Source of the DNA: a virus | UHGV virus genome: UHGV-0070025 | Reading direction: 5' to 3' (one strand) | Length of the DNA: 20,565 nucleotides | Shown here: positions 1 through 17,103 of the stretch, one piece after another | Layout of the letters: each line of letters begins with the position of its first letter | Position numbering within the stretch: the stretch's first letter is position 1 | The notes under the pieces: generated by a model | The model's database searches: none | Told to the model about the DNA's origin: nothing | Seen by the model: the letters and a program-made list of their open reading frames with translations, nothing else | Program-made: the position numbers and the translations under genes

Positions 1-23
1 CGGTATTACGTCGTTCGCTGGGG

Positions 24-503
24 TTGCGTGCGGAAAAAATCCGCTCAATGTACCGTGAAAGCGACATCGTACCGGGAGAGCAGACCGCCACCAGCATACT
101 GAAGCAGCGCACAAAAAATCTTGCGCCGCTGCCTCACGCCCACCAGCAAAACCCGCCACAGGAAGAGACGGTGGTCAGCATTGCCGTTGATCCTGAGTCT
201 CCGGAATCTTTCATGAAACGACCTAAACGTCGCCGCTGGGTTAACGAGAAATACACACGCTGGGTGAAGACACAGCCGTGTGCGTGTTGTGGTAAGCCAG
301 CCGACGATCCCCATCACCTGATTGGTCATGGTCAGGGCGGAATGGGGACAAAATCTCACGATATTTTCACGCTACCGCTGTGTCGGGAGCATCACAACGA
401 GCTTCATGCGGATCCTCTGGCGTTCGAAGAAAAGCATGGTTCTCAGGTTGATTTAATTTTTCGTTTTCTTGATCACGCCTTTGCAACTGGCGTGCTTGGG
501 TAA
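24..503 (+). CDS. nin-region phage protein with Cys/His zinc-binding (HNH-like) motif; probably 5'-truncated by the window edge
   Basis: Reading frame is open from the window start (no stop upstream of the TTG at 24). C-terminus carries CACCGKP..DPHHL..LCREHHNELH. Sits directly upstream of rusA, as nin-region genes do in lambdoid phages. Family name (DUF968-like) is recalled, not verified. Confidence 0.6.
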   Translation: MRAEKIRSMYRESDIVPGEQTATSILKQRTKNLAPLPHAHQQNPPQEETVVSIAVDPESPESFMKRPKRRRWVNEKYTRWVKTQPCACCGKPADDPHHLIGHGQGGMGTKSHDIFTLPLCREHHNELHADPLAFEEKHGSQVDLIFRFLDHAFATGVLG

Positions 504-515
504 AAGAGGTGACTG

Positions 516-890
516 ATGCTCATAGATTTGGTTTTACCTTACCCGCCGACGGTGAACACTTACTGGCGACGCCGTGGCAGCACATATTTTATCTCGGAGG
601 AGGGAAAGCGTTATCGCCGGGCTGTGGCGCTTATTGTTCGCCAGCAGCGGCTGAAATTAAGCCTGTCCGGAAGGCTGGCGATAAAGGTGATTGCAGAGCC
701 ACCGGATAAGCGTCGTCGCGACCTGGACAATATCCTGAAAGCACCGCTGGATGCGCTGACGCATGCGGGAGTGTTAATGGACGATGAGCAGTTTGATGAA
801 ATCAATATCGTTCGTGGTCAGCCAGTATCTGGTGGACGTATGGGGGTGAAGATTTACCCCATAATGCATGAAGAGCAGGTCAAAAAATGA
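516..890 (+). CDS. rusA: crossover junction endodeoxyribonuclease RusA (Holliday junction resolvase)
   Basis: 124 aa; translation has RusA-typical N-terminus (LPYPPTVNTYWRRRG) and the RRRDLDN(I)LKA..DALT catalytic acidic motif; AAGAGG Shine-Dalgarno upstream; position just before Q. Confidence 0.9.
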   Translation: MLIDLVLPYPPTVNTYWRRRGSTYFISEEGKRYRRAVALIVRQQRLKLSLSGRLAIKVIAEPPDKRRRDLDNILKAPLDALTHAGVLMDDEQFDEINIVRGQPVSGGRMGVKIYPIMHEEQVKK

Positions 891-1708
891 AACTGGAAGA
901 TTTACCGAAATACTACTCCCCAAAATCCCCTGGCCTGACCGATGCATCGGCCTCAACGTCAAAAGATGCGCTGAGTATCACTGATGTGATGGCCGCGCAG
1001 GGCATGACACAGAATCGGGCTGAGATGGGGTTTTCTGCGTTCCTGGGGAAAATGGGCATCAGTATGAATGACAGGGCGCGGGCAACAGAATTACTGGCAG
1101 ATTATGCACTCAGTCGGTGCGATCGTGTGGCGGCGTTGAGAAAACTTCCGGCAGAAATAAAACCGGTAGTGATGCGCATTATGGCTTCGTATGCGTTTGA
1201 AGATTATGCCCGTAGCGCGGCGAGCAAAAAACAGTGCCCTTGCTGTCACGGAAAAAAATTTATTGAAAGCGAGGTTTTTACAAACAAGATCCAGTATCCG
1301 GATGGTAAGCCACCAGTGTGGGCAAAGTGCACAAAAGGCGTGTATCCGTCTTACTGGGAAGAATGGAAAAAAGTCAGGGAGGTGGTAAAAGTTGCCTGTC
1401 CGGAGTGTGGCGGAAAGGGTGAGGTTTCCACCGCCTGTAAGGATTGCCGTGGGCGTGGTGTCGCCATTCATCGTGAAGAGTCGGTAAAACGTGGTATGCC
1501 TGTTATCAGAGATTGCCAGCGTTGTGGTGGTCGTGGCTGTGAAAGGCTGCCATCAACGGAGGCATTTAATGCCATATGCAAAGTGACGAGTGCTATCACG
1601 CTTGATACGTGGAAAAAATCAGTGAAACGCTTTTACGATACGTTGGTGGTTCGGTTTGACATTGAAGAGGCATGGGCGGAGCGGCAGTTAAAGAGGGTAA
1701 CGCGATAG
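887..1708 (+). CDS. late-gene antitermination protein Q homologue with Cys-rich zinc-finger region
   Basis: 273 aa; ATGA start/stop overlap with rusA; four CxxCxGxG-like repeats (CPCCHGKK, CPECGGKG, CKDCRGRG, CQRCGGRG); lies immediately upstream of a pR'-like promoter and short terminator, the canonical Q position. Confidence 0.65.
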   Translation: MKLEDLPKYYSPKSPGLTDASASTSKDALSITDVMAAQGMTQNRAEMGFSAFLGKMGISMNDRARATELLADYALSRCDRVAALRKLPAEIKPVVMRIMASYAFEDYARSAASKKQCPCCHGKKFIESEVFTNKIQYPDGKPPVWAKCTKGVYPSYWEEWKKVREVVKVACPECGGKGEVSTACKDCRGRGVAIHREESVKRGMPVIRDCQRCGGRGCERLPSTEAFNAICKVTSAITLDTWKKSVKRFYDTLVVRFDIEEAWAERQLKRVTR

Positions 1709-1710
1709 TG

Positions 1711-1760
1711 TTGTTGATTTTTCCCGAATCTGTGGTAAATTTGCTCTAACGATGGGCGTT
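1711..1760 (+). promoter_or_regulatory. late promoter pR'-like with putative Q-utilisation/pause region
   Basis: GGTAAATTTGCTCTAACGATGGG (1733-1756) closely resembles the lambda pR' -10 and initial transcribed region as I recall it (GGGTAAATTTGACTCAACGATGGG); candidate -35 TTGATT at 1714-1719. Confidence 0.55.
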
Positions 1761-1787
1761 TTATGCCTGACGTTAGAAGATTTTTTA

Positions 1788-1812
1788 CACCCCGCCGCCT
1801 GGCGGGTTTTTT
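1788..1812 (+). terminator. intrinsic terminator (tR'-like) about 40-60 nt downstream of the pR' start
   Basis: CCCGCC-GCCT-GGCGGG hairpin followed by TTTTTT. Confidence 0.75.
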
Positions 1813-1932
1813 ATGACTGAAATCGCGTCAGTACAGTAAACGCGCTGGTGGCGGTGAATACCTGTCTTTCAGCTTGCTGGCTTTTTCGACAAGAGTTATT
1901 GGTGTGTCACGTTAACCGGAAAAGGAAAAGAC

Positions 1933-2130
1933 ATGCTAAAACAGCAGGATATGACAGAAACCGCCAGAGTGGTGTTTAATGAATTAAGCGTTACCGACCC
2001 GGCGACAGTCGGGGAGATAGCGCAGAATACTTACCTTTCACGCGAACGCTGCCAGTTAATACTGACTCAGCTGGTTATGGCGGGTCTGGCAGACTATCAG
2101 TTCGGTTGTTACAGACGCCTTCCGCAGTGA
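1933..2130 (+). CDS. small hypothetical protein, possible helix-turn-helix
   Basis: 65 aa; AAGGAAAAG RBS 6 nt upstream of ATG; segment TVGEIAQNTYLSRERCQLIL looks HTH-like; stop codon sits inside a terminator hairpin. Confidence 0.5.
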   Translation: MLKQQDMTETARVVFNELSVTDPATVGEIAQNTYLSRERCQLILTQLVMAGLADYQFGCYRRLPQ

Positions 2131-2144
2131 AGGCTTTTTTATTT
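2117..2144 (+). terminator. intrinsic terminator
   Basis: GCCTTC-cgcagt-GAAGGC hairpin followed by TTTTTTATTT. Confidence 0.7.
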
Positions 2145-2158
2145 GTGGTAAATGGGCG

Positions 2159-2187
2159 GCTGGTGGGTGTTAGGGGCACCCACCAGC
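2159..2187 (+). promoter_or_regulatory. 11-bp perfect stem hairpin following a second TGTGGTAAAT motif
   Basis: GCTGGTGGGTG-ttagggg-CACCCACCAGC; no U-tract; directly preceded by TGTGGTAAAT (2144-2153), identical to the pR' -10 region at 1731-1740. Confidence 0.35.
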
Positions 2188-2280
2188 CATCTGCTCATGC
2201 GTCCGGATCACAAGCAAACCTCAGGCCCACTGCTTTGCGCAAAAGCAGAATGAGCCTATCAGAGACAGGCTTAATGATCC

Positions 2281-3365
2281 ATGCTTAATACTGTAAAAAT
2301 ATCCAGTTGTGAGTTAATCAACGCCGACTGCCTGGAATTTATCCGGTCGTTACCCGAAAATTCTGTTGACCTGATAGTCACGGACCCGCCGTACTTTAAA
2401 GTGAAGCCTGAGGGCTGGGATAACCAGTGGAAGGGCGACGATGATTACCTGAAGTGGCTGGACCAGTGTCTGGCGCAGTTCTGGCGGGTGCTGAAACCTG
2501 CCGGAAGTCTTTACCTGTTCTGTGGTCATCGCCTGGCATCTGATATCGAAATCATGATGCGTGAACGCTTCAGTGTGCTGAACCATATTATCTGGGCGAA
2601 GCCGTCCGGACGCTGGAACGGATGCAACAAGGAAAGGCTGCGGGCGTATTTCCGTGACTAAACAAGGAAGGGCGGGGGGCTTTTTCCCCCGCCACAGAGC
2701 GCATTCTGTTCGCGGAACATTATCAGGGGCCGTATCGTCCGAAAGATGCCGGGTATGCGGCGAAGGGCAGTGCACTGAAACAGCATGTGATGGCCCCGCT
2801 GATTTCTTACTTTCGTGATGCGCGCGCGGCCCTGGGGATAACGGCAAAACAGATTGCAGATGCCACAGGAAAGAAAAACATGGTGTCGCACTGGTTCAGT
2901 GCCAGTCAGTGGCAGCTACCGAATGAAAGCGATTATCTGAAATTACAGGCGCTGTTTGCCCGGGTGGCAGAAGAGAAGCATCGGCGTGGTGAACTGGAAA
3001 AGCTCCACCACCAGCTGGTGGATACGTATACCTCACTGAACCGGCAGTATGCGGAGCTGCTGAGTGAATATAAACATCTGCGGCGGTATTTTGGCGTGAC
3101 GGTGCAGGTGCCGTATACCGATGTGTGGACGCATAAACCGGTGCAGTTCTATCCCGGGAAACATCCGTGCGAAAAACCGGCAGAAATGCTGCAGCAGATA
3201 ATCAGCGCAAGTAGCCGTCCTGGTGATCTGGTTGCGGATTTTTTCATGGGGTCGGGTTCAACGGTAAAAGCGGCGATGGCACTGGGGCGTCGTGCGATTG
3301 GTGTTGAGCTGGAGACCGGACGTTTTGAGCAGACAGTCAGGGAAGTTCAGGATTTAATCGTTTGA
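2281..3365 (+). pseudogene. beta-class (DPPY...FxGxG) DNA N6-adenine/N4-cytosine methyltransferase, interrupted between the two halves
   Basis: N-terminal part (2281-2661, frame 1) carries motif IV LIVTDPPY. C-terminal part (frame 3, open from 2658, ORF-track start 2787, to 3365) carries motif I DFFMGSGST. Frame 1 stops at TAA 2659-2661; frame 3 has TGA at 2655-2657. The halves cannot be joined without a frame change. Confidence 0.75.
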
Positions 3366-3414
3366 AACGGATGAGATTGCAGAATTAATTACGCACCATT
3401 ATTATTCTGCTCCC

Positions 3415-3490
3415 GGCCCTTTAGCTCAGTGGTGAGAGCGAGCGACTCATAATCGCCAGGTCGCTGGTTCAAATCCAGCAAGGGCCACCA
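3415..3490 (+). tRNA. tRNA with anticodon CAT (Ile2-lysidine or Met type)
   Basis: 76 nt cloverleaf: acceptor GGCCCTT/AAGGGCC, D-arm GCTCAGTGGTGAGAGC, anticodon loop CTCATAA, T-loop TTCAAAT, 3' CCA encoded. Matches the ileZ position of Stx-type phages. Confidence 0.9.
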
Positions 3491-3497
3491 TCACATA

Positions 3498-3574
3498 CCG
3501 CCATTAGCTCATCAGGATAGAGCACCAGCCTTCGAAGCTGGTTGCGCGGGGTTCGAGTCCTCGATGGCGGTCCA
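3498..3574 (+). tRNA. tRNA-Arg (anticodon TCG)
   Basis: 77 nt: acceptor CCGCCAT/ATGGCGG, anticodon stem CCAGC/GCTGG with loop CTTCGAA, T-loop TTCGAGT, CCA encoded. Confidence 0.85.
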
Positions 3575-3587
3575 TTATCTGTACCCT

Positions 3588-3664
3588 GCGTTGTTAGCTC
3601 AACCGGACAGAGCAATTGCCTTCTAAGCAATCGGTCACTGGTTCGAATCCAGTACAACGCGCCA
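3588..3664 (+). tRNA. tRNA-Arg (anticodon TCT)
   Basis: 77 nt: acceptor GCGTTGT/ACAACGC, anticodon stem ATTGC/GCAAT with loop CTTCTAA, T-loop TTCGAAT, CCA encoded. Confidence 0.9.
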
Positions 3665-3678
3665 GACTTATTTTTCCC

Positions 3679-3704
3679 GGCTCGCTTTTGCGGGCCTTTT
3701 TTTT
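3679..3704 (+). terminator. intrinsic terminator after the tRNA cluster
   Basis: GGCTCGC-tttt-GCGGGCC stem (one G.U pair) followed by T8. Confidence 0.7.
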
Positions 3705-3710
3705 AAATGT

Positions 3711-3925
3711 CTCACAATTCAGACGGTTGACAGTTGTCTGTTTTGCGGGGAGTTTGTTAAAAGAAACTGGCATGGTGAATCCCCCTGTGCGGATGGGCAA
3801 TCAGCGAGTAGGTATATGGGATAATCGCGGATTCAGGTGCTGGTACTGAATTCACCGGGAGGCACCCGGCACCATGCAATGGCACATAGCGCCACTCTCC
3901 AGCCCCTCTCCGGAGGGGCTTTTCT
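3711..3925 (+). ncRNA. candidate structured small RNA, tandem unit A
   Basis: Begins with CTCACAATTCAG then TTGACA; shares conserved blocks with unit B (TTTGTTAAAA, GCATGGTGAATCCCCCTG, CACCGGGAGGCACCCGGCACCATG); ends in terminator GCCCCTC-tccg-GAGGGGC + TTTTCT (3902-3925). No convincing ORF. Confidence 0.35.
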
Positions 3926-4114
3926 GTGCCGGATACATCACAGTTTCTGGAACCTTAGGTACTACAGTATCAGTCAGGGTGCTATATTTTCAGATGTGAT
4001 GAAAGCCTGTCAGCAGGCAGGGCGTATCGGAAATGACCCAGTAGAGAAAACGTTGACTCAGATACCGGTGCTGAGTTACCGGGAAACCGGCATCACATGA
4101 CCGCTATCCTTCCA

Positions 4115-4141
4115 GGCCCATCCGCTCCGGTGGGCCTTTTT
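4115..4141 (+). terminator. intrinsic terminator
   Basis: GGCCCA...TGGGCC stem followed by TTTTT. Confidence 0.55.
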
Positions 4142-4178
4142 ACTGCAGAAAACAGGTTCCCCGTTAAATGCTATGTTG

Positions 4179-4412
4179 CTCACAATTCAGTAAGTTGACA
4201 GTTGCCTGTCAGACTGGGCATTTGTTAAAAAAATTTCGCATGGTGAATCCCCCTGAGCGGAGGGGCGACTGGTGACGGTATAATCTCTGATTATCAAAAC
4301 GAGAATGACGCGGGTTTAGTGGCACCGGGCTGAACTCACCGGGAGGCACCCGGCACCATGTGCATGATGATACAGATACGCGGCTTTAGCCCCTCTCCGG
4401 AGGGGTTTTCTT
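4179..4412 (+). ncRNA. candidate structured small RNA, tandem unit B (paralogue of unit A)
   Basis: Same block order as unit A, 468 bp downstream; contains a perfect TATAAT at 4279-4284; ends in terminator GCCCCTC-tccg-GAGGGG(T) + TTTTCTT (4389-4412). Confidence 0.35.
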
Positions 4413-4417
4413 GTGGG

Positions 4418-4447
4418 CAAAAAAAGCCCGCGCTGGGAGACGCGGGC
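4418..4447 (-). terminator. minus-strand intrinsic terminator, back-to-back with the unit B terminator
   Basis: On the minus strand: GCCCGCG-tctcccag-CGCGGGC followed by TTTTTTT (the plus-strand A-run at 4418-4425). Confidence 0.45.
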
Positions 4448-4640
4448 GGCAAGGAATAAACAATAAAACGTGAAGTAATATTTCAGCTGGCGAATAATAC
4501 CCCATAGTAATCACTCTGCGCAACTGCGCGGTCTTTTTCGAATTGCGGGCTGTCGTCTCTCTTCTGCCATTGTCCTGTAACTTCCGGACTTCAGCCCGCT
4601 CCTTATTTTACTCACAATATTATCCCGGCCGGGAGGATTC

Positions 4641-4868
4641 ATGGCATTTAAACACTATGACGTGGTCAGGGCGGTATCGCCGTCAGACCTTGCGAAACGA
4701 CTGACACAAAAACTGAAGGAGGGCTGGCAGCCGTTTGGTAGTCCGGTGGCCATAACCCCTTATACCCTGATGCAGGCGATTGCAGCAGAAGGTGATGTGG
4801 TGGTCAGTGGTGCAACTGAGCCGGATTGGTACTACGTCATCGTACTGGCCCGGCATTCCAGGCCATAA
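4641..4868 (+). CDS. small phage protein, DUF1737-like
   Basis: 75 aa; GGGAGG RBS 5-6 nt upstream of ATG; pattern YDVV..S.SDLAKRL..KL.EGWQPFG resembles DUF1737 as I recall it (unverified). Confidence 0.6.
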   Translation: MAFKHYDVVRAVSPSDLAKRLTQKLKEGWQPFGSPVAITPYTLMQAIAAEGDVVVSGATEPDWYYVIVLARHSRP

Positions 4869-5072
4869 AAGACAGTCTGGCAGTGGGACTAAATGCACTG
4901 ACGCTGATGGATATTACCAAAAATGTAACGTATGGCGTTGAGATAGAAAGTCTGGCGCTGGAGATAAATGCACCGGCATCATCATAAAAAGTGAGCCAGT
5001 CAAATGGAAGGTATCGTTAAACTCACCGGTAGTGTCAGTGGGTCGTCTGAGACGCTTGCATGAGTTATCAGA

Positions 5073-5102
5073 GCCATCAGTAGTTAACTGGTGGCTTTTT
5101 TA
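5073..5102 (+). terminator. intrinsic terminator just upstream of the lysis cassette
   Basis: GCCATCAG-tagttaa-CTGGTGGC (one G.U pair) followed by TTTTTTATTGTTTT. Confidence 0.65.
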
Positions 5103-5136
5103 TTGTTTTCAGCTTCCGGATAACGGGAGACGGGGT

Positions 5137-5352
5137 ATGGACCAGATGGAAAAAATCACAACAGGTGTGTCATACACCACGTCAGCGGTGGGAACGGGCT
5201 ACTGGTTCCTGCAGTTGCTGGACAGGGTTTCCCCGTCTCAGTGGGCGGCAATAGGCGTGCTGGGGAGTCTGCTGTTTGGGCTGCTGACATATCTGACTAA
5301 CCTGTATTTCAAAATCAGAGAGGACCGTCGTAAGGCGGCACGGGGAGAGTAA
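5137..5352 (+). CDS. S: class II holin / pinholin (phage 21 S-like) with dual-start motif
   Basis: 71 aa from ATG 5137; GGGAGA RBS; begins MDQMEK (Met1 and Met4, as in S21 antiholin/holin pair); C-terminus [22 protein letters not shown] matches S21 as recalled. The ORF-track start at 5032 is an upstream in-frame extension. Confidence 0.85.
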
Positions 5353-5356
5353 TTCA

Positions 5357-5701
5357 ATGACTCAAAACTATGAACTGATTGTGAAAGGGATCCGCAATTT
5401 TGAGAATAAAGTTACGGTAACTTTAGCGTTACGGGACAAAAAACGCTTTGACGGTGAAATTTTTGACCTGGACATCTCGCTGGACCGTGTTGAAGGTGCT
5501 GCGCTGGAGTTTTATGAGGCAGCGGCCAGAAGGAGCATCAGACAGGTCTTCCTGGATGTCGCTGCCGGGTTATGTGAAGGGGATGAGCAGTCGCCGGAAA
5601 AGCGCCCCGTAATTTTAGAGGCGCAGAATGTGTGGATAACCTACAAAGGAAAGCTACCGGGAAGGATTACTGGTTCCCTGAAGACTCCGCCGAAATGGTA
5701 G
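5357..5701 (+). CDS. hypothetical protein (accessory gene inserted between holin and endolysin)
   Basis: 114 aa; GGGGAGAG RBS overlapping the holin stop (translational coupling); no transmembrane segment evident; no family recognised. Confidence 0.6.
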   Translation: MTQNYELIVKGIRNFENKVTVTLALRDKKRFDGEIFDLDISLDRVEGAALEFYEAAARRSIRQVFLDVAAGLCEGDEQSPEKRPVILEAQNVWITYKGKLPGRITGSLKTPPKW

Positions 5702-5939
5702 TTTTGCCAGCATAATTTTCTTCCAGCAATGCCGCCAGCCACTTGAAAGAATTTTGTTGTTCCTGGGACCATTTGGGGTTGCGTGATTCAAAATGAATGG
5801 ATGCCAGCGTTGGCAGCATTTGCTCCCTGGGAATTGATAAGGCCAGATGTGAAAATGCAACAGTGAGGGCATTTACATCATCCCGAAGCCTGGAAATGCA
5901 GTCGAGCAACTCCTGTAGAGAAATGGTGCTATTGTCCAT
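5667..5939 (-). CDS. hypothetical protein, convergent with and 3'-overlapping the preceding gene
   Basis: 90 aa on the minus strand; strong GAGGA RBS 6-7 nt upstream of ATG; 35-nt 3' overlap with the + strand ORF; no family recognised. Confidence 0.55.
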   Translation of the reverse strand: MDNSTISLQELLDCISRLRDDVNALTVAFSHLALSIPREQMLPTLASIHFESRNPKWSQEQQNSFKWLAALLEENYAGKTTISAESSGNQ

Positions 5940-6044
5940 AAATAATCCTCTTGATTGTCTTTACCTTTTCCCCGCCTGATTCAACAGGCCGGGACAGATA
6001 AACATATCCAGGGTTCAGAAACCGATAAATCCTGATAAATATCC

Positions 6045-6578
6045 ATGAACGCAAAAATCAAATACGGCCTGTCAGCTGCAGTTCTGGCGCTGATTGGAGC
6101 AGGCGCATCAGCTCCTCAGATACTTGACCAGTTTCTGGATGAAAAAGAAGGTAACCACACAACGGCATACCGCGATGGTTCCGGCATCTGGACCATCTGT
6201 CGGGGTGCCACGATGGTGGATGGAAAACCCGTTTTTCCCGGTATGAAACTGTCGAAGGAAAAATGCGACCAGGTCAACGCCATTGAGCGTGATAAGGCGC
6301 TGGCATGGGTGGAGCGCAATATTAAAGTACCACTGACCGAACCACAAAAAGCGGGTATCGCGTCATTTTGTCCCTATAACATTGGCCCCGGTAAGTGTTT
6401 TCCATCGACGTTTTATAAGCGGCTGAATGCTGGTGATCGTAAGGGCGCATGCGAGGCGATTCGCTGGTGGATAAAAGATGGTGGGCGCGATTGCCGCATA
6501 CGTTCAAATAACTGCTATGGACAGGTTATTCGTCGTGACCAAGAAAGCGCATTAGCCTGTTGGGGAATAGATCAGTGA
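6045..6578 (+). CDS. R: SAR endolysin (lysozyme, phage 21 R / RrrD-like)
   Basis: 177 aa; N-terminal Gly/Ala-rich weakly hydrophobic segment ([16 protein letters not shown]) typical of signal-anchor-release domains; catalytic-region motifs (EG..TAYRD..G.WTICRG) resemble T4-lysozyme-type phage lysozymes. Confidence 0.9.
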
Positions 6579-7042
6579 GCAGAGTCGCCGCGATTATTTA
6601 TGCTCTGGTTATCTGCATCATCGTCTGCCTGTCGTGGGCGGTCAATCATTACCGTGATAACGCCATCACCTACAAAGAACAGCGTGATAAAAAAGTCAGT
6701 GAGCTGAAGCAGCTGACCGCCACCATCGCTGACATGCAGCAGCGTCAGCGTGATGTTGCTGCGCTCGATGCAAAGTACTCGAGAGAATTAGCCAATGCGA
6801 AAGCTGAAAATGAAACTCTGCGCGCTGATGTTGCCGCTGGTCGTAAGCGCCTGCGGGTCAATGCCAGTTGCTCCGCAGCCGTGCGTGAAGCCACCGGACC
6901 CACCAGCGTGGATAATGCAACCAGCCCCAGACTGGCAGACACCGCTGAACGGGATTATTTCACCCTCAGAGAACGGTTGATGACGATGCAGAAGCAACTG
7001 GAAGGGGCACAGCTATACATTCGTGAGCAATGTCTCAGATAA
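6575..7042 (+). CDS. Rz: Rz inner-membrane spanin
   Basis: GTG start overlapping the endolysin stop; N-terminal transmembrane helix ([17 protein letters not shown]) then coiled-coil periplasmic domain; contains the embedded Rz1 frame. Confidence 0.85.
6795..6980 (+). CDS. Rz1: Rz1 outer-membrane lipoprotein spanin, embedded in the +1 frame of Rz
   Basis: 61 aa; lipobox LVVSAC; proline-rich mature part ([30 protein letters not shown]) nearly identical in pattern to lambda Rz1. Confidence 0.85.
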
Positions 7043-7197
7043 AAACCGGCCAAGGATAATCCGCTAAAGATTCGCCGGTGGCGAAAGAGAGCCAAGGTGT
7101 CAACCTACGCTATTACTTATGATAATGCAACAGACGAAGCGGGACATATTGGCGCATAACAAATCAGTGCAGGCTAACTGCAGGAAGAACTTAGGGC

Positions 7198-7464
7198 GTG
7201 AACGTAGAAAACCTAAGTAACGCACATTACATCTATAACGAGATGAAAGAGCTACAGCGACAGAAAGGTATACTGGAAAGTGGTGCAGGGCTTGGTGTGA
7301 CAATCCAGTCTGCCTATCAATATAGTGCTTTTCTTGAGGCCATACGCCCGCATGCAGTTGCTGAACTTAACAGCCGTATTGAGGAAAAGAAATCCGCGCT
7401 GGTTAATTTGGGTGCTTCCTTCTCTATATACGAGCATAATAAGGCGGGTTGGAAACCCGCCTAA
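7198..7464 (+). CDS. hypothetical small protein (uncertain)
   Basis: 88 aa from GTG (alternative ATG at 7243); weak RBS; the 3' end runs through the hairpin that serves as terminator for the convergent minus-strand gene. Confidence 0.3.
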   Translation: MNVENLSNAHYIYNEMKELQRQKGILESGAGLGVTIQSAYQYSAFLEAIRPHAVAELNSRIEEKKSALVNLGASFSIYEHNKAGWKPA

Positions 7465-7469
7465 AGCAC

Positions 7470-8009
7470 TTAGAAACTGCGTGGAGCTGTGGAAAGAATG
7501 GATGCCAGTTCTTCCTTCGATAAATCCCAGCTTCGATTTACAGCGTCAATTTTCTTAAACTCATCAAGCATTGCGTTATAGAGATGTTCTGTACGTGAAT
7601 GAGTATTGGCAATGGGCTGTTTCTGTTCGGGGAAGCGATCAATTTTCTGATATGCCTCAATGATACTGAAGTAATCGCATTCATTATTACCGTCGAAACC
7701 TGGGAGCTGAATTGCCCCATCATGTATTTTTAGATGATGGTCACGGACTAATTCTTTTTGCTCGTCATCACTAAGTTTCCTGAAAGCATTGGAAAGTCCG
7801 CGATACATATTCAAGACAGCAGTAACAAAATCACGATCTTCTTTACTTGGTTCGTCAACATCCAAATGTGAATATTCGGCCTTGATAACCCAATCATTAC
7901 CAGATGACACAGCATATTTAACAAGCTGTGGATCAATATCAGTTTCGATACCTAGGTGGATGGCAATGTCACATAACAAAATGGTATTGATTTTATCTTT
8001 AATATCCAT
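7470..8009 (-). CDS. hypothetical accessory protein, possibly YfbU-family (UPF0304)-like
   Basis: 179 aa; GAGGG RBS on minus strand; AT-richer than flanking phage genes; followed on the minus strand by hairpin GGCGGGTT/AACCCGCC (about 7444-7462) and a U-rich tail; YfbU resemblance is from memory of the E. coli protein and is unverified. Confidence 0.6.
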   Translation of the reverse strand: MDIKDKINTILLCDIAIHLGIETDIDPQLVKYAVSSGNDWVIKAEYSHLDVDEPSKEDRDFVTAVLNMYRGLSNAFRKLSDDEQKELVRDHHLKIHDGAIQLPGFDGNNECDYFSIIEAYQKIDRFPEQKQPIANTHSRTEHLYNAMLDEFKKIDAVNRSWDLSKEELASILSTAPRSF

Positions 8010-14083: not shown

Positions 14084-14104
14084 CCACTCGTTGTTCAGTT
14101 ACAG

Positions 14105-14127
14105 ACCGCGCCGACGCGGTTTTTTTA
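14105..14127 (+). terminator. intrinsic terminator after the major capsid gene
   Basis: ACCGCG-ccga-CGCGGT followed by a T-run; a second hairpin GCCCGCA-cagtgt-TGCGGGC follows at 14129-14148. Confidence 0.7.
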
Positions 14128-14159
14128 TGCCCGCACAGTGTTGCGGGCAGGAGTTTCTG

Positions 14160-15611: not shown

Positions 15612-15631
15612 GGTCGTTAATGATTTACCCA

Positions 15632-15657
15632 CCCGCCGCTGGCGGGTTTTTTTATTT
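15632..15657 (+). terminator. intrinsic terminator
   Basis: ACCCGCC-gct-GGCGGGT followed by TTTTTTTATTTT; nearly identical stem to the tR'-like terminator at 1788-1812. Confidence 0.7.
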
Positions 15658-17063: not shown

Positions 17064-17072
17064 GTCAACATA

Positions 17073-17094
17073 ACCGCTTCGGCGGTTTTTTTTC
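17073..17094 (+). terminator. intrinsic terminator
   Basis: ACCGC-ttcg-GCGGT followed by T8. Confidence 0.6.
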
Positions 17095-17103
17095 GTCCGG
17101 AGA

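Follow-up and report, generated by a model that had tools for sequence, protein, structure and literature searches.

The stretch of DNA analysed here, 20,565 nucleotides (nt) of the virus genome UHGV-0070025 (hereafter the window), is the late region of a lambdoid Escherichia coli prophage. According to its list of open reading frames (ORFs) and to Pfam, the + strand has the gene order DUF968 gene, rusA, Q, class II (P21-type) holin, lysozyme and Rz, followed by HNH, terminase, portal, protease, HK97-type capsid, tail tube, chaperone and tape-measure genes. The closest database matches are prophages in extraintestinal pathogenic E. coli (ExPEC) of the ST95 type, for instance UTI89 (97.7% over 7.1 kb), and 690 of 5426 complete E. 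coli genomes have a place that covers at least 80% of window positions 1-7100, which run from Q through the lysis genes. Several phages encoding Shiga toxin (Stx) 2 are about 92% identical to the window DNA from position 1792 on. Between the antiterminator gene Q and the holin gene lies a series of hairpins with the features of intrinsic terminators; these sites, the late promoter in front of them and the genes that they separate are the subject of this analysis.

Terminator-like hairpins between Q and the holin gene

An earlier note on this DNA had listed seven intrinsic terminators on the + strand, all located upstream of the holin, endolysin and structural genes. All seven hairpin-plus-U-tract sites were recovered independently at these positions by a consensus scan, and the gene context obtained with Pfam agrees with their placement. 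The sites, with their folding free energies (dG), are as follows:

T1: hairpin 1791-1806, terminator 1791-1812, + strand; CCCGCCGCCTGGCGGG followed by T6, dG -12.6 kcal/mol
T2: hairpin 2117-2134, terminator 2117-2140, + strand; GCCTTCCGCAGTGAAGGC followed by T6, dG -8.9 kcal/mol
T3: hairpin 3679-3696, terminator 3679-3704, + strand; T8 tail, dG -14.0 kcal/mol
T4: hairpin 3901-3920, terminator 3901-3925, + strand; tail TTTTCTGTG, dG -19.3 kcal/mol
T5: hairpin 4114-4137, terminator 4114-4141, + strand; tail TTTTTAC, dG -16.3 kcal/mol
T6: hairpin 4388-4407, terminator 4388-4412, + strand; tail TTTTCTTGTG, dG -15.9 kcal/mol
T7: hairpin 5070-5098, terminator 5070-5102, + strand; tail TTTTTTATTG, dG -17.0 kcal/mol

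The hairpin energies thus range from -8.9 to -19.3 kcal/mol, and each hairpin is followed by a T run. The sites had been described as canonical, which agrees with the presence of a GC-rich hairpin and an immediate U tract on the transcribed strand at 7/7 sites; however, the U tracts of T4 (TTTTCTGTG) and T6 (TTTTCTTGTG) are interrupted, and these two sites are therefore near-canonical rather than canonical. The interval 1709-5137 contains 16 terminator-like hits compared to 3.9 +/- 2.1 in dinucleotide shuffles, an excess of about fourfold. Without nested duplicates 13 hits remain, 10 of which are on the + strand. For the whole window, 35 hits were obtained (18.7 +/- 4.0 in shuffles), and the comparison of both counts reveals that the excess is local to 1709-5137, while the remainder of the window is roughly at chance. 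These statistics are based on the consensus scan with shuffles; a separate, over-permissive scan, which accepted long weak hairpins, was not used. The structure is kept beyond sequence identity in relatives at T1, T2 and T7, and at T4 and T6 it belongs to an Rfam consensus structure; the relatives seen for T3 and T5 are near-identical only.

The scan also returned an eighth, weak site within the series:

T6b: hairpin 4516-4531, terminator 4516-4536, + strand; dG -9.3

The T6b stem is broken in the relative PhiR5_2, in which an overlapping minus-strand -35 element is kept. T6b is doubtful for both reasons, the broken stem and the overlap with a conserved -35, and was left off the firm list.

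The Q gene, the late promoter and T1

The series is preceded by the elements of a lambda-type late operon: a Q-family gene lies immediately upstream, a promoter with a pause element follows, and beyond T1 the lysis and structural genes are co-oriented.

887-1708, + strand: Q antiterminator gene of the lambda family, 273 amino acids (aa); Pfam PF03589 (Antiterm), E 2e-49
1714-1741, + strand: late promoter pR', with -35 TTGATT (1714-1719), a 16-nt spacer and an extended -10 TGgTAAATT (1733-1741)
1748-1756, + strand: predicted transcription start (about 1748) and sigma-70-dependent pause element AACGATGGG, 9/9 bases identical to lambda +1 to +9

The lambda Q protein loads at AACGATGGG, an element where the polymerase pauses in a sigma-70-dependent manner. 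The Q protein of the window aligns with lambda Q over its full length (BLASTP, 31% identity, E 1e-37) and differs from it by an extra CxxC zinc-finger insert of 66 aa. Lambda pR' can be aligned with the 40 bases that follow the Q stop codon, with identity at the -10 TAAATT and in its flanks, and TAAATT-N6-AACGATGGG as a whole is identical to lambda pR'. The extended TG of the promoter was recovered by a relaxed promoter scan. By analogy with the established biology of lambda, 1748-1756 is predicted to be the site at which Q loads. The combination of a lambda-family Q with a lambda-identical pR' -10 and pause element identifies T1 as tR'.

T1 is predicted to end a pR' RNA of about 64 nt (1748 to about 1812), which folds into two hairpins with a U-rich AGAAGAUUUUUU linker between them (z -2.8). 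This RNA is the counterpart of the lambda 6S RNA and of StxS of Stx phages (PMC7547250); it is shorter than the lambda RNA, which has 194 nt, and it has no sequence relation to StxS. In Stx lysogens, pR' is constitutively active, transcription is stopped at tR' and the late genes need Q; the tR'-terminated RNA StxS is described as a by-product of this antitermination system (PMC7547250, Sy et al. 2020). The late switch of lambda shares with the window the Q family, the -10 element, the pause element, a short constitutive RNA made by a nearby terminator and the co-stranded lysis and morphogenesis genes. It differs in the distance between tR' and the holin gene, which is about 0.4 kb in lambda, whereas the window has about 3.3 kb of cargo and six more terminators at this place.

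The conservation of T1 was followed in 80 viral contigs encoding a 65-aa ORF that lies downstream of T1. Upstream of T1, these contigs fall into at least 8 unrelated sequence classes, i.e., different Q/pR' cassettes. At the T1 position itself, a hairpin with a direct T run is present in about 30 of the 32 distinct variants, built from many different stem sequences. Furthermore, the homology with those Stx2 phages whose Q has 126 aa breaks exactly at the T1 hairpin. T1 is thus conserved in position across exchanged upstream classes, which, together with this break, indicates that tR' is where the shared cargo is joined to Q cassettes that can be exchanged.

Cargo cassettes and their terminators

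The earlier note had treated the terminators as one chain between Q and the lysis genes. The gene content does not support a single unit, since each site forms the 3' end of its own cassette:

1933-2130, + strand: 65-aa ORF, a conserved cargo gene with weak winged-helix similarity (ORF list), ending in T2
2281-3365, + strand: N6/N4 DNA methylase gene, a split pseudogene; PF01555 on both halves, aligned with the intact UTI89 gene
3377-3405, + strand: candidate tRNA promoter pT (TTGCAG, 17-nt spacer, TATTAT) from the relaxed scan; homologous to the 933W region annotated as pT
3415-3664, + strand: three tRNA genes (CAU, Arg-UCG, Arg-UCU), found by ARAGORN and Rfam and annotated in UTI89 and 933W
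3741-3931, + strand: STnc100 small RNA (sRNA) copy 1, including T4; Rfam RF02076, 130.4 bits (gathering score 47)
3970-4143, + strand: degenerate third STnc100-family unit, including T5; RF02076, 30.1 bits, E 4e-5 in a local search, below gathering
4209-4418, + strand: STnc100 sRNA copy 2, including T6; Rfam RF02076, 161 bits (gathering score 47)
4420-4523, minus strand: convergent sRNA-like gene with promoter TTGCGC (4523-4518), 18-nt spacer and TATTAT (4499-4494)
4630-4990, + strand: nanS-p/SASA esterase remnant, consisting of a DUF1737 ORF (4641-4868, Pfam) and a 3'-end fragment

The 65-aa ORF has 588 relatives in viral contigs and a Pfam match to TrmB with an E of 0.004, which is below the cutoff. 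T2 overlaps its stop codon. In 11 variants the T2 stem is invariant or contains G-U pairs, and in phage Stx2_95 the stem is unchanged despite differences at 5/6 loop positions. Between T2 and the methylase start lies a near-perfect hairpin without U tract (2158-2188, GGCTGGTGGGTG...CACCCACCAGCC; dG -33.7 and z -6.2 for 2150-2200), which is kept in relatives. Compared to UTI89, where the gene is intact, the methylase ORF is split by 35 inserted bp at 2652-2686 (CCGTGACTAAACAAGGAAGGGCGGGGGGCTTTTTC). The insert is in part a repeat of the AACAAGGAAAGGC just before it and gives rise to a hairpin (GGCGGGGG/CCCCCGCC) with a terminator-like score on the minus strand. The CAU tRNA of the following cluster is annotated as tRNA-Ile in the homologous UTI89 locus and as ileZ in 933W. 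T3 closes the three-tRNA cluster and is 88% identical to the 933W site annotated as 'possible rho-independent terminator upstream of the stx genes'.

Copies 1 and 2 of STnc100 are full-length Rfam matches, and T4 and T6 are the terminator stems within the STnc100 consensus structure. The middle unit folds alone into the same closed multi-stem core and terminator, through changed sequence; it resembles the STnc100 family in its predicted fold, yet its score lies below the threshold for members (30.1 compared to 47 bits), and it is described here as degenerate. Probable -10 elements (GACAGT) are located at 3729-3734 for copy 1 and 4197-4202 for copy 2, and the relaxed promoter scan returned a possible extended -10 (TGcTATATT, 3980-3988) in the middle unit. 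More generally, a weak -10 (GACAGT, GATGAT or GATTAT) is found 6 nt before the Rfam 5' end and an upstream motif is conserved in 6/7 copies, with a poor -35. A sigma-54 promoter was also considered for these units, but did not fit in a by-eye comparison. Three + strand copies of the octamer CTCACAAT (3711-3718, 4179-4186 and 4611-4618) each lie where a cassette starts, at STnc100 copy 1, at copy 2 and at the esterase remnant; the octamer may belong to a promoter or mark a recombination boundary.

In EDL933, transcription of STnc100 copies takes place without induction, as confirmed for one copy by Northern blot (PMC5331693), and STnc100 and the related PasD are Hfq-associated sRNAs with their own expression (PMC5331693, PMC8550237). 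The family typically lies beside Q and holin (bioRxiv 10.64898/2026.05.13.724894), and in Stx2 phages one copy is found just 3' of stx2B (also PMC12370729). The idea that the units are orphan pR'-qut-tR' modules of a 933W-type Q was rejected, as pR' and qut of 933W directly follow Q and STnc100 lies 3' of stx2B. It has also to be considered that the tandem elements act in cis, for instance as put-like antiterminator RNAs, in which case readthrough of the series would not be accomplished by Q alone. Such a role would fit elements that are always co-oriented within late operons, between Q and holin, and whose multi-stem core is highly conserved. However, neither of the two conserved core motifs has a match in the HK022 genome at up to 3 mismatches, and the Rfam scan of the HK022 immunity/put region (27600-30100) revealed no STnc100 match at E <= 10, so that a put-like function is unsupported by these searches. 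Moreover, each unit ends in its own terminator, and without induction the cells contain the units in abundance as separate sRNAs (PMC5331693). An action in cis is therefore regarded as highly improbable.

The minus-strand gene directly follows STnc100 copy 2. Its predicted RNA has about 68 nt (from about 4487 to 4420; fold z -2.9) and ends at a minus-strand terminator that is absent from the earlier note (hairpin 4448-4427 followed by U7, dG -16.9). The gene is also present in UTI89, PhiR5_2 and Stx2_95. It has in common with AsxR of 933W (RF02703) and AgvB of PPyecE_EH1910 (RF02702) the slot 3' of STnc100, the convergent orientation, the GCGCAGTTGCGCAG block of the -35 and a strong terminator, whereas the RNA body is unrelated in sequence; an Rfam search of 1700-5200 (E <= 1), with the AsxR and AgvB models included, gave no match for this RNA. 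By analogy with StxS and AsxR/AgvB, the pR'-tR' RNA (1748-1812) and the minus-strand RNA may be uncharacterised Hfq-type regulatory sRNAs of ExPEC-associated prophages, a tentative proposal that we regard as rather doubtful. The last cargo element is the esterase remnant, a nanS-p/SASA sialate esterase gene that has lost its interior; one end is left as the DUF1737 ORF and the other in the next 120 nt. According to BLAST, these two pieces correspond to the 5' and 3' ends of the esterase gene in E2348/69, and the locus is a pseudogene in the UTI89 annotation.

A short RNA had been expected for each terminator. This expectation is reasonable where a promoter lies ahead, which is the case for pR' and T1, for pT, the tRNAs and T3, and for the STnc100 units; for T2 no promoter was found upstream, and none was found for an RNA ending at T7.

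Lysis genes, readthrough and relation to known systems

Downstream of T7, the late operon continues with the lysis genes, and the consensus scan returned three further strong terminators beyond them:

5137-5352, + strand: class II holin gene (Pfam)
5357-5701, + strand: DUF1327 gene (Pfam)
5667-5939, minus strand: 90-aa ORF in antisense orientation, between the DUF1327 and lysozyme genes; no Pfam match, hypothetical in UTI89
6045-6578, + strand: lysozyme gene (Pfam)
6560-7042, + strand: Rz gene (Pfam)
14103-14129, + strand: terminator after the major capsid gene, dG -11.2
15631-15654, + strand: terminator at the 5' edge of the tail-tube ORF, dG -12.6, z -2.8
17072-17095, + strand: terminator before the tape-measure gene, dG -8.5

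The series hence does not end at the lysis genes, as had been assumed, but has three more members within the structural operon. The annotated ATG of the tail-tube ORF at 15620 is probably not the true start.

T7 consists of a 12-bp stem followed by U6 and is located 35 nt before the start codon of the holin gene S. Its conservation was assessed in 80 contigs encoding the holin, which contain 15 distinct variants of the upstream 50 nt. In these variants, 91.7% of the cells of the 8-pair core stem are paired, compared to 14-64% in slid-register controls, and 3/8 pairs show compensatory changes on both sides, upstream of P21-type holins. In prophage PP2 of E2348/69, where the holin allele differs and the DNA upstream is unrelated, a + strand terminator is also found just before the holin gene. 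The minus-strand sRNA PasA is located between the esterase and holin genes of this prophage, and the + strand terminator preceding the holin is separate from it (L168, 5415-5475 and 5632-5668); a holin-proximal terminator thus recurs in an unrelated sequence context. T7 was also considered as the terminator of PasA, but PasA of E2348/69 is encoded on the opposite strand and in a segment without homology to the window. One idea is that T7 is a conserved 'safety catch', which would shield the lysis genes from constitutive cargo promoters.

No + strand sigma-70-like promoter was found in the 640 nt before the holin gene, even at a relaxed threshold of 8/12. A lambda-family Q, lambda pR' elements and the lack of a promoter before the holin gene make readthrough by Q-modified RNA polymerase the expected route to the late genes. 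The earlier note had gone further, stating that late-gene expression must depend on such a polymerase and that internal promoters before the lysis and structural genes would make Q readthrough unnecessary. The lambda-type Q/pR'/tR' module upstream of the series agrees with the first statement, although 'must' goes beyond what a deduction of this kind can carry; with respect to promoters, the region before the holin gene is clear, whereas the best sigma-70-like match of the whole window (7297-7326, GTGACA-18-TATAGT, 10/12) lies between Rz and the HNH/terminase genes. A YfbU-domain gene (7470-8009) adjoins this match on the opposite strand and is ended by a hairpin at 7444-7462.

With a probability of roughly 80%, the interval 1709-5136 is an expanded late-operon leader, or 'moron region', in a lambda-like E. 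coli prophage, and its terminators are cassette ends that would be read through by means of the lambda-type Q. Late transcription would start at pR' just after Q, at about 1748, and would stop at tR' in the absence of Q, yielding the 64-nt RNA. The cargo between tR' and the holin gene would consist of separately acquired cassettes, namely the 65-aa ORF with T2, the broken methylase gene, the tRNA operon with its promoter and T3, the three STnc100-family units with T4, T5 and T6, the convergent minus-strand sRNA-like gene, the esterase remnant and the holin-proximal T7. In the lysogen, the pR', tRNA and sRNA promoters would be active and their transcripts would end at T1, T3 and T4/T5/T6; the terminators would thereby keep constitutive transcription out of the lethal lysis genes, with T7 catching leakage. 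After induction, Q would load onto the polymerase paused at AACGATGGG and render it terminator-resistant, so that one transcript would run through the seven or eight sites and the three sites in the structural genes (14103, 15631 and 17072).

Several observations weigh against this reading. The pR' spacer, in which the Q-binding element of lambda is located, is unrelated to that of lambda, and a Q-binding element could therefore not be assigned. The probable promoters of the STnc100 units are weakly sigma-70-like, and their start sites are placed according to the Rfam model boundary. Furthermore, T4 and T6 may be leaky through their interrupted U tracts, and the promoter-like sequence at 7297-7326 could drive Q-independent transcription of the head and tail genes. 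These last two points, like the Hfq association and own expression of STnc100 and PasD mentioned above, would also be expected if the hairpins were mainly 3' ends and Hfq-binding or stability modules that terminate leakily, with substantial Q-independent late transcription from pT, the STnc100 promoters and 7297-7326. We consider this unlikely: T3 with its U8 tail and T7 are strong, no promoter-like sequence follows T7 in the short distance to the holin gene, unregulated expression of holin and endolysin would be lethal to the lysogen, and the lambda-type Q/pR' module is retained intact.

The pseudogenes in the cargo also have to be taken into account, since the broken methylase and esterase genes mean that the prophage may be decaying. 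In a defective prophage, the series would be a non-functional relic of mosaic recombination and the hairpins would mark module boundaries instead of acting as regulators; the insertion in the methylase gene, the esterase deletion, the degenerate STnc100 unit and the homology break with Stx2 phages exactly at T1 would all fit. However, Q, pR', holin, lysozyme, Rz and all head and tail ORFs are intact, the stems are kept while loops vary and compensatory changes occur, which points to selection on structure, and a place covering at least 80% of positions 1-7100 is found in the 690 genomes mentioned above. A mere relic is thus quite unlikely, and the interpretation as a leader of cassettes read through with the help of Q is retained.

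Promoter-gene-terminator cassettes within lambdoid late operons, termed morons, are reportedly a concept of the Hendrix and Hatfull groups. The cargo units of the window likewise have their own terminators, some have a promoter, and they are co-directional with the late operon; their density is unusually high, with 7-8 terminators in 3.4 kb. The nearest known arrangement is that of the Stx phages 933W, Stx2_95 and Sp5, which have the same cargo order (ORF65, methylase, ileZ-argN-argO, terminator, [stx], STnc100, minus-strand sRNA in the AsxR/AgvB slot, esterase, holin) and 92% DNA identity over much of the Q-to-S region. In the 933W record, pR', qut, three terminators, pT and the tRNAs ahead of stx2 are already annotated. 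In Stx2 phages the tRNA cluster is followed by stx2AB and a single STnc100 unit, whereas in the window the same cluster is followed, without stx, by three tandem STnc100-family units and a deleted esterase gene. Moreover, the Q/pR' cassette of the window is of the lambda type, in contrast to the 933W type or the 126-aa type of the Stx phages. The site of the STnc100 units next to Q and holin matches the published synteny of STnc100/PasD prophage sRNAs (bioRxiv 10.64898/2026.05.13.724894), from which the window differs by three units in tandem, the middle one of which scores 30 bits and keeps the fold.

Given the 933W annotation, the work of Sy et al. (PMC7547250) and the existence of STnc100 as an Rfam family, the window is a new example of a known arrangement. 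Modestly new are the lambda-identical pause element in combination with a divergent, enlarged Q and the role of tR' as a mosaic joint; the three tandem STnc100-family units at the place where related Stx2 phages carry stx and one unit; and the unannotated allele in the AsxR/AgvB slot together with the recurring holin-proximal terminator. The understanding of late-gene control is unchanged by these findings. The analysis places pR' and tR' for a variant of the lambda Q family and gives each terminator a cassette, and its practical value lies mainly in annotation, i.e., in how the Q-to-holin interval is to be read in many such E. coli prophages.

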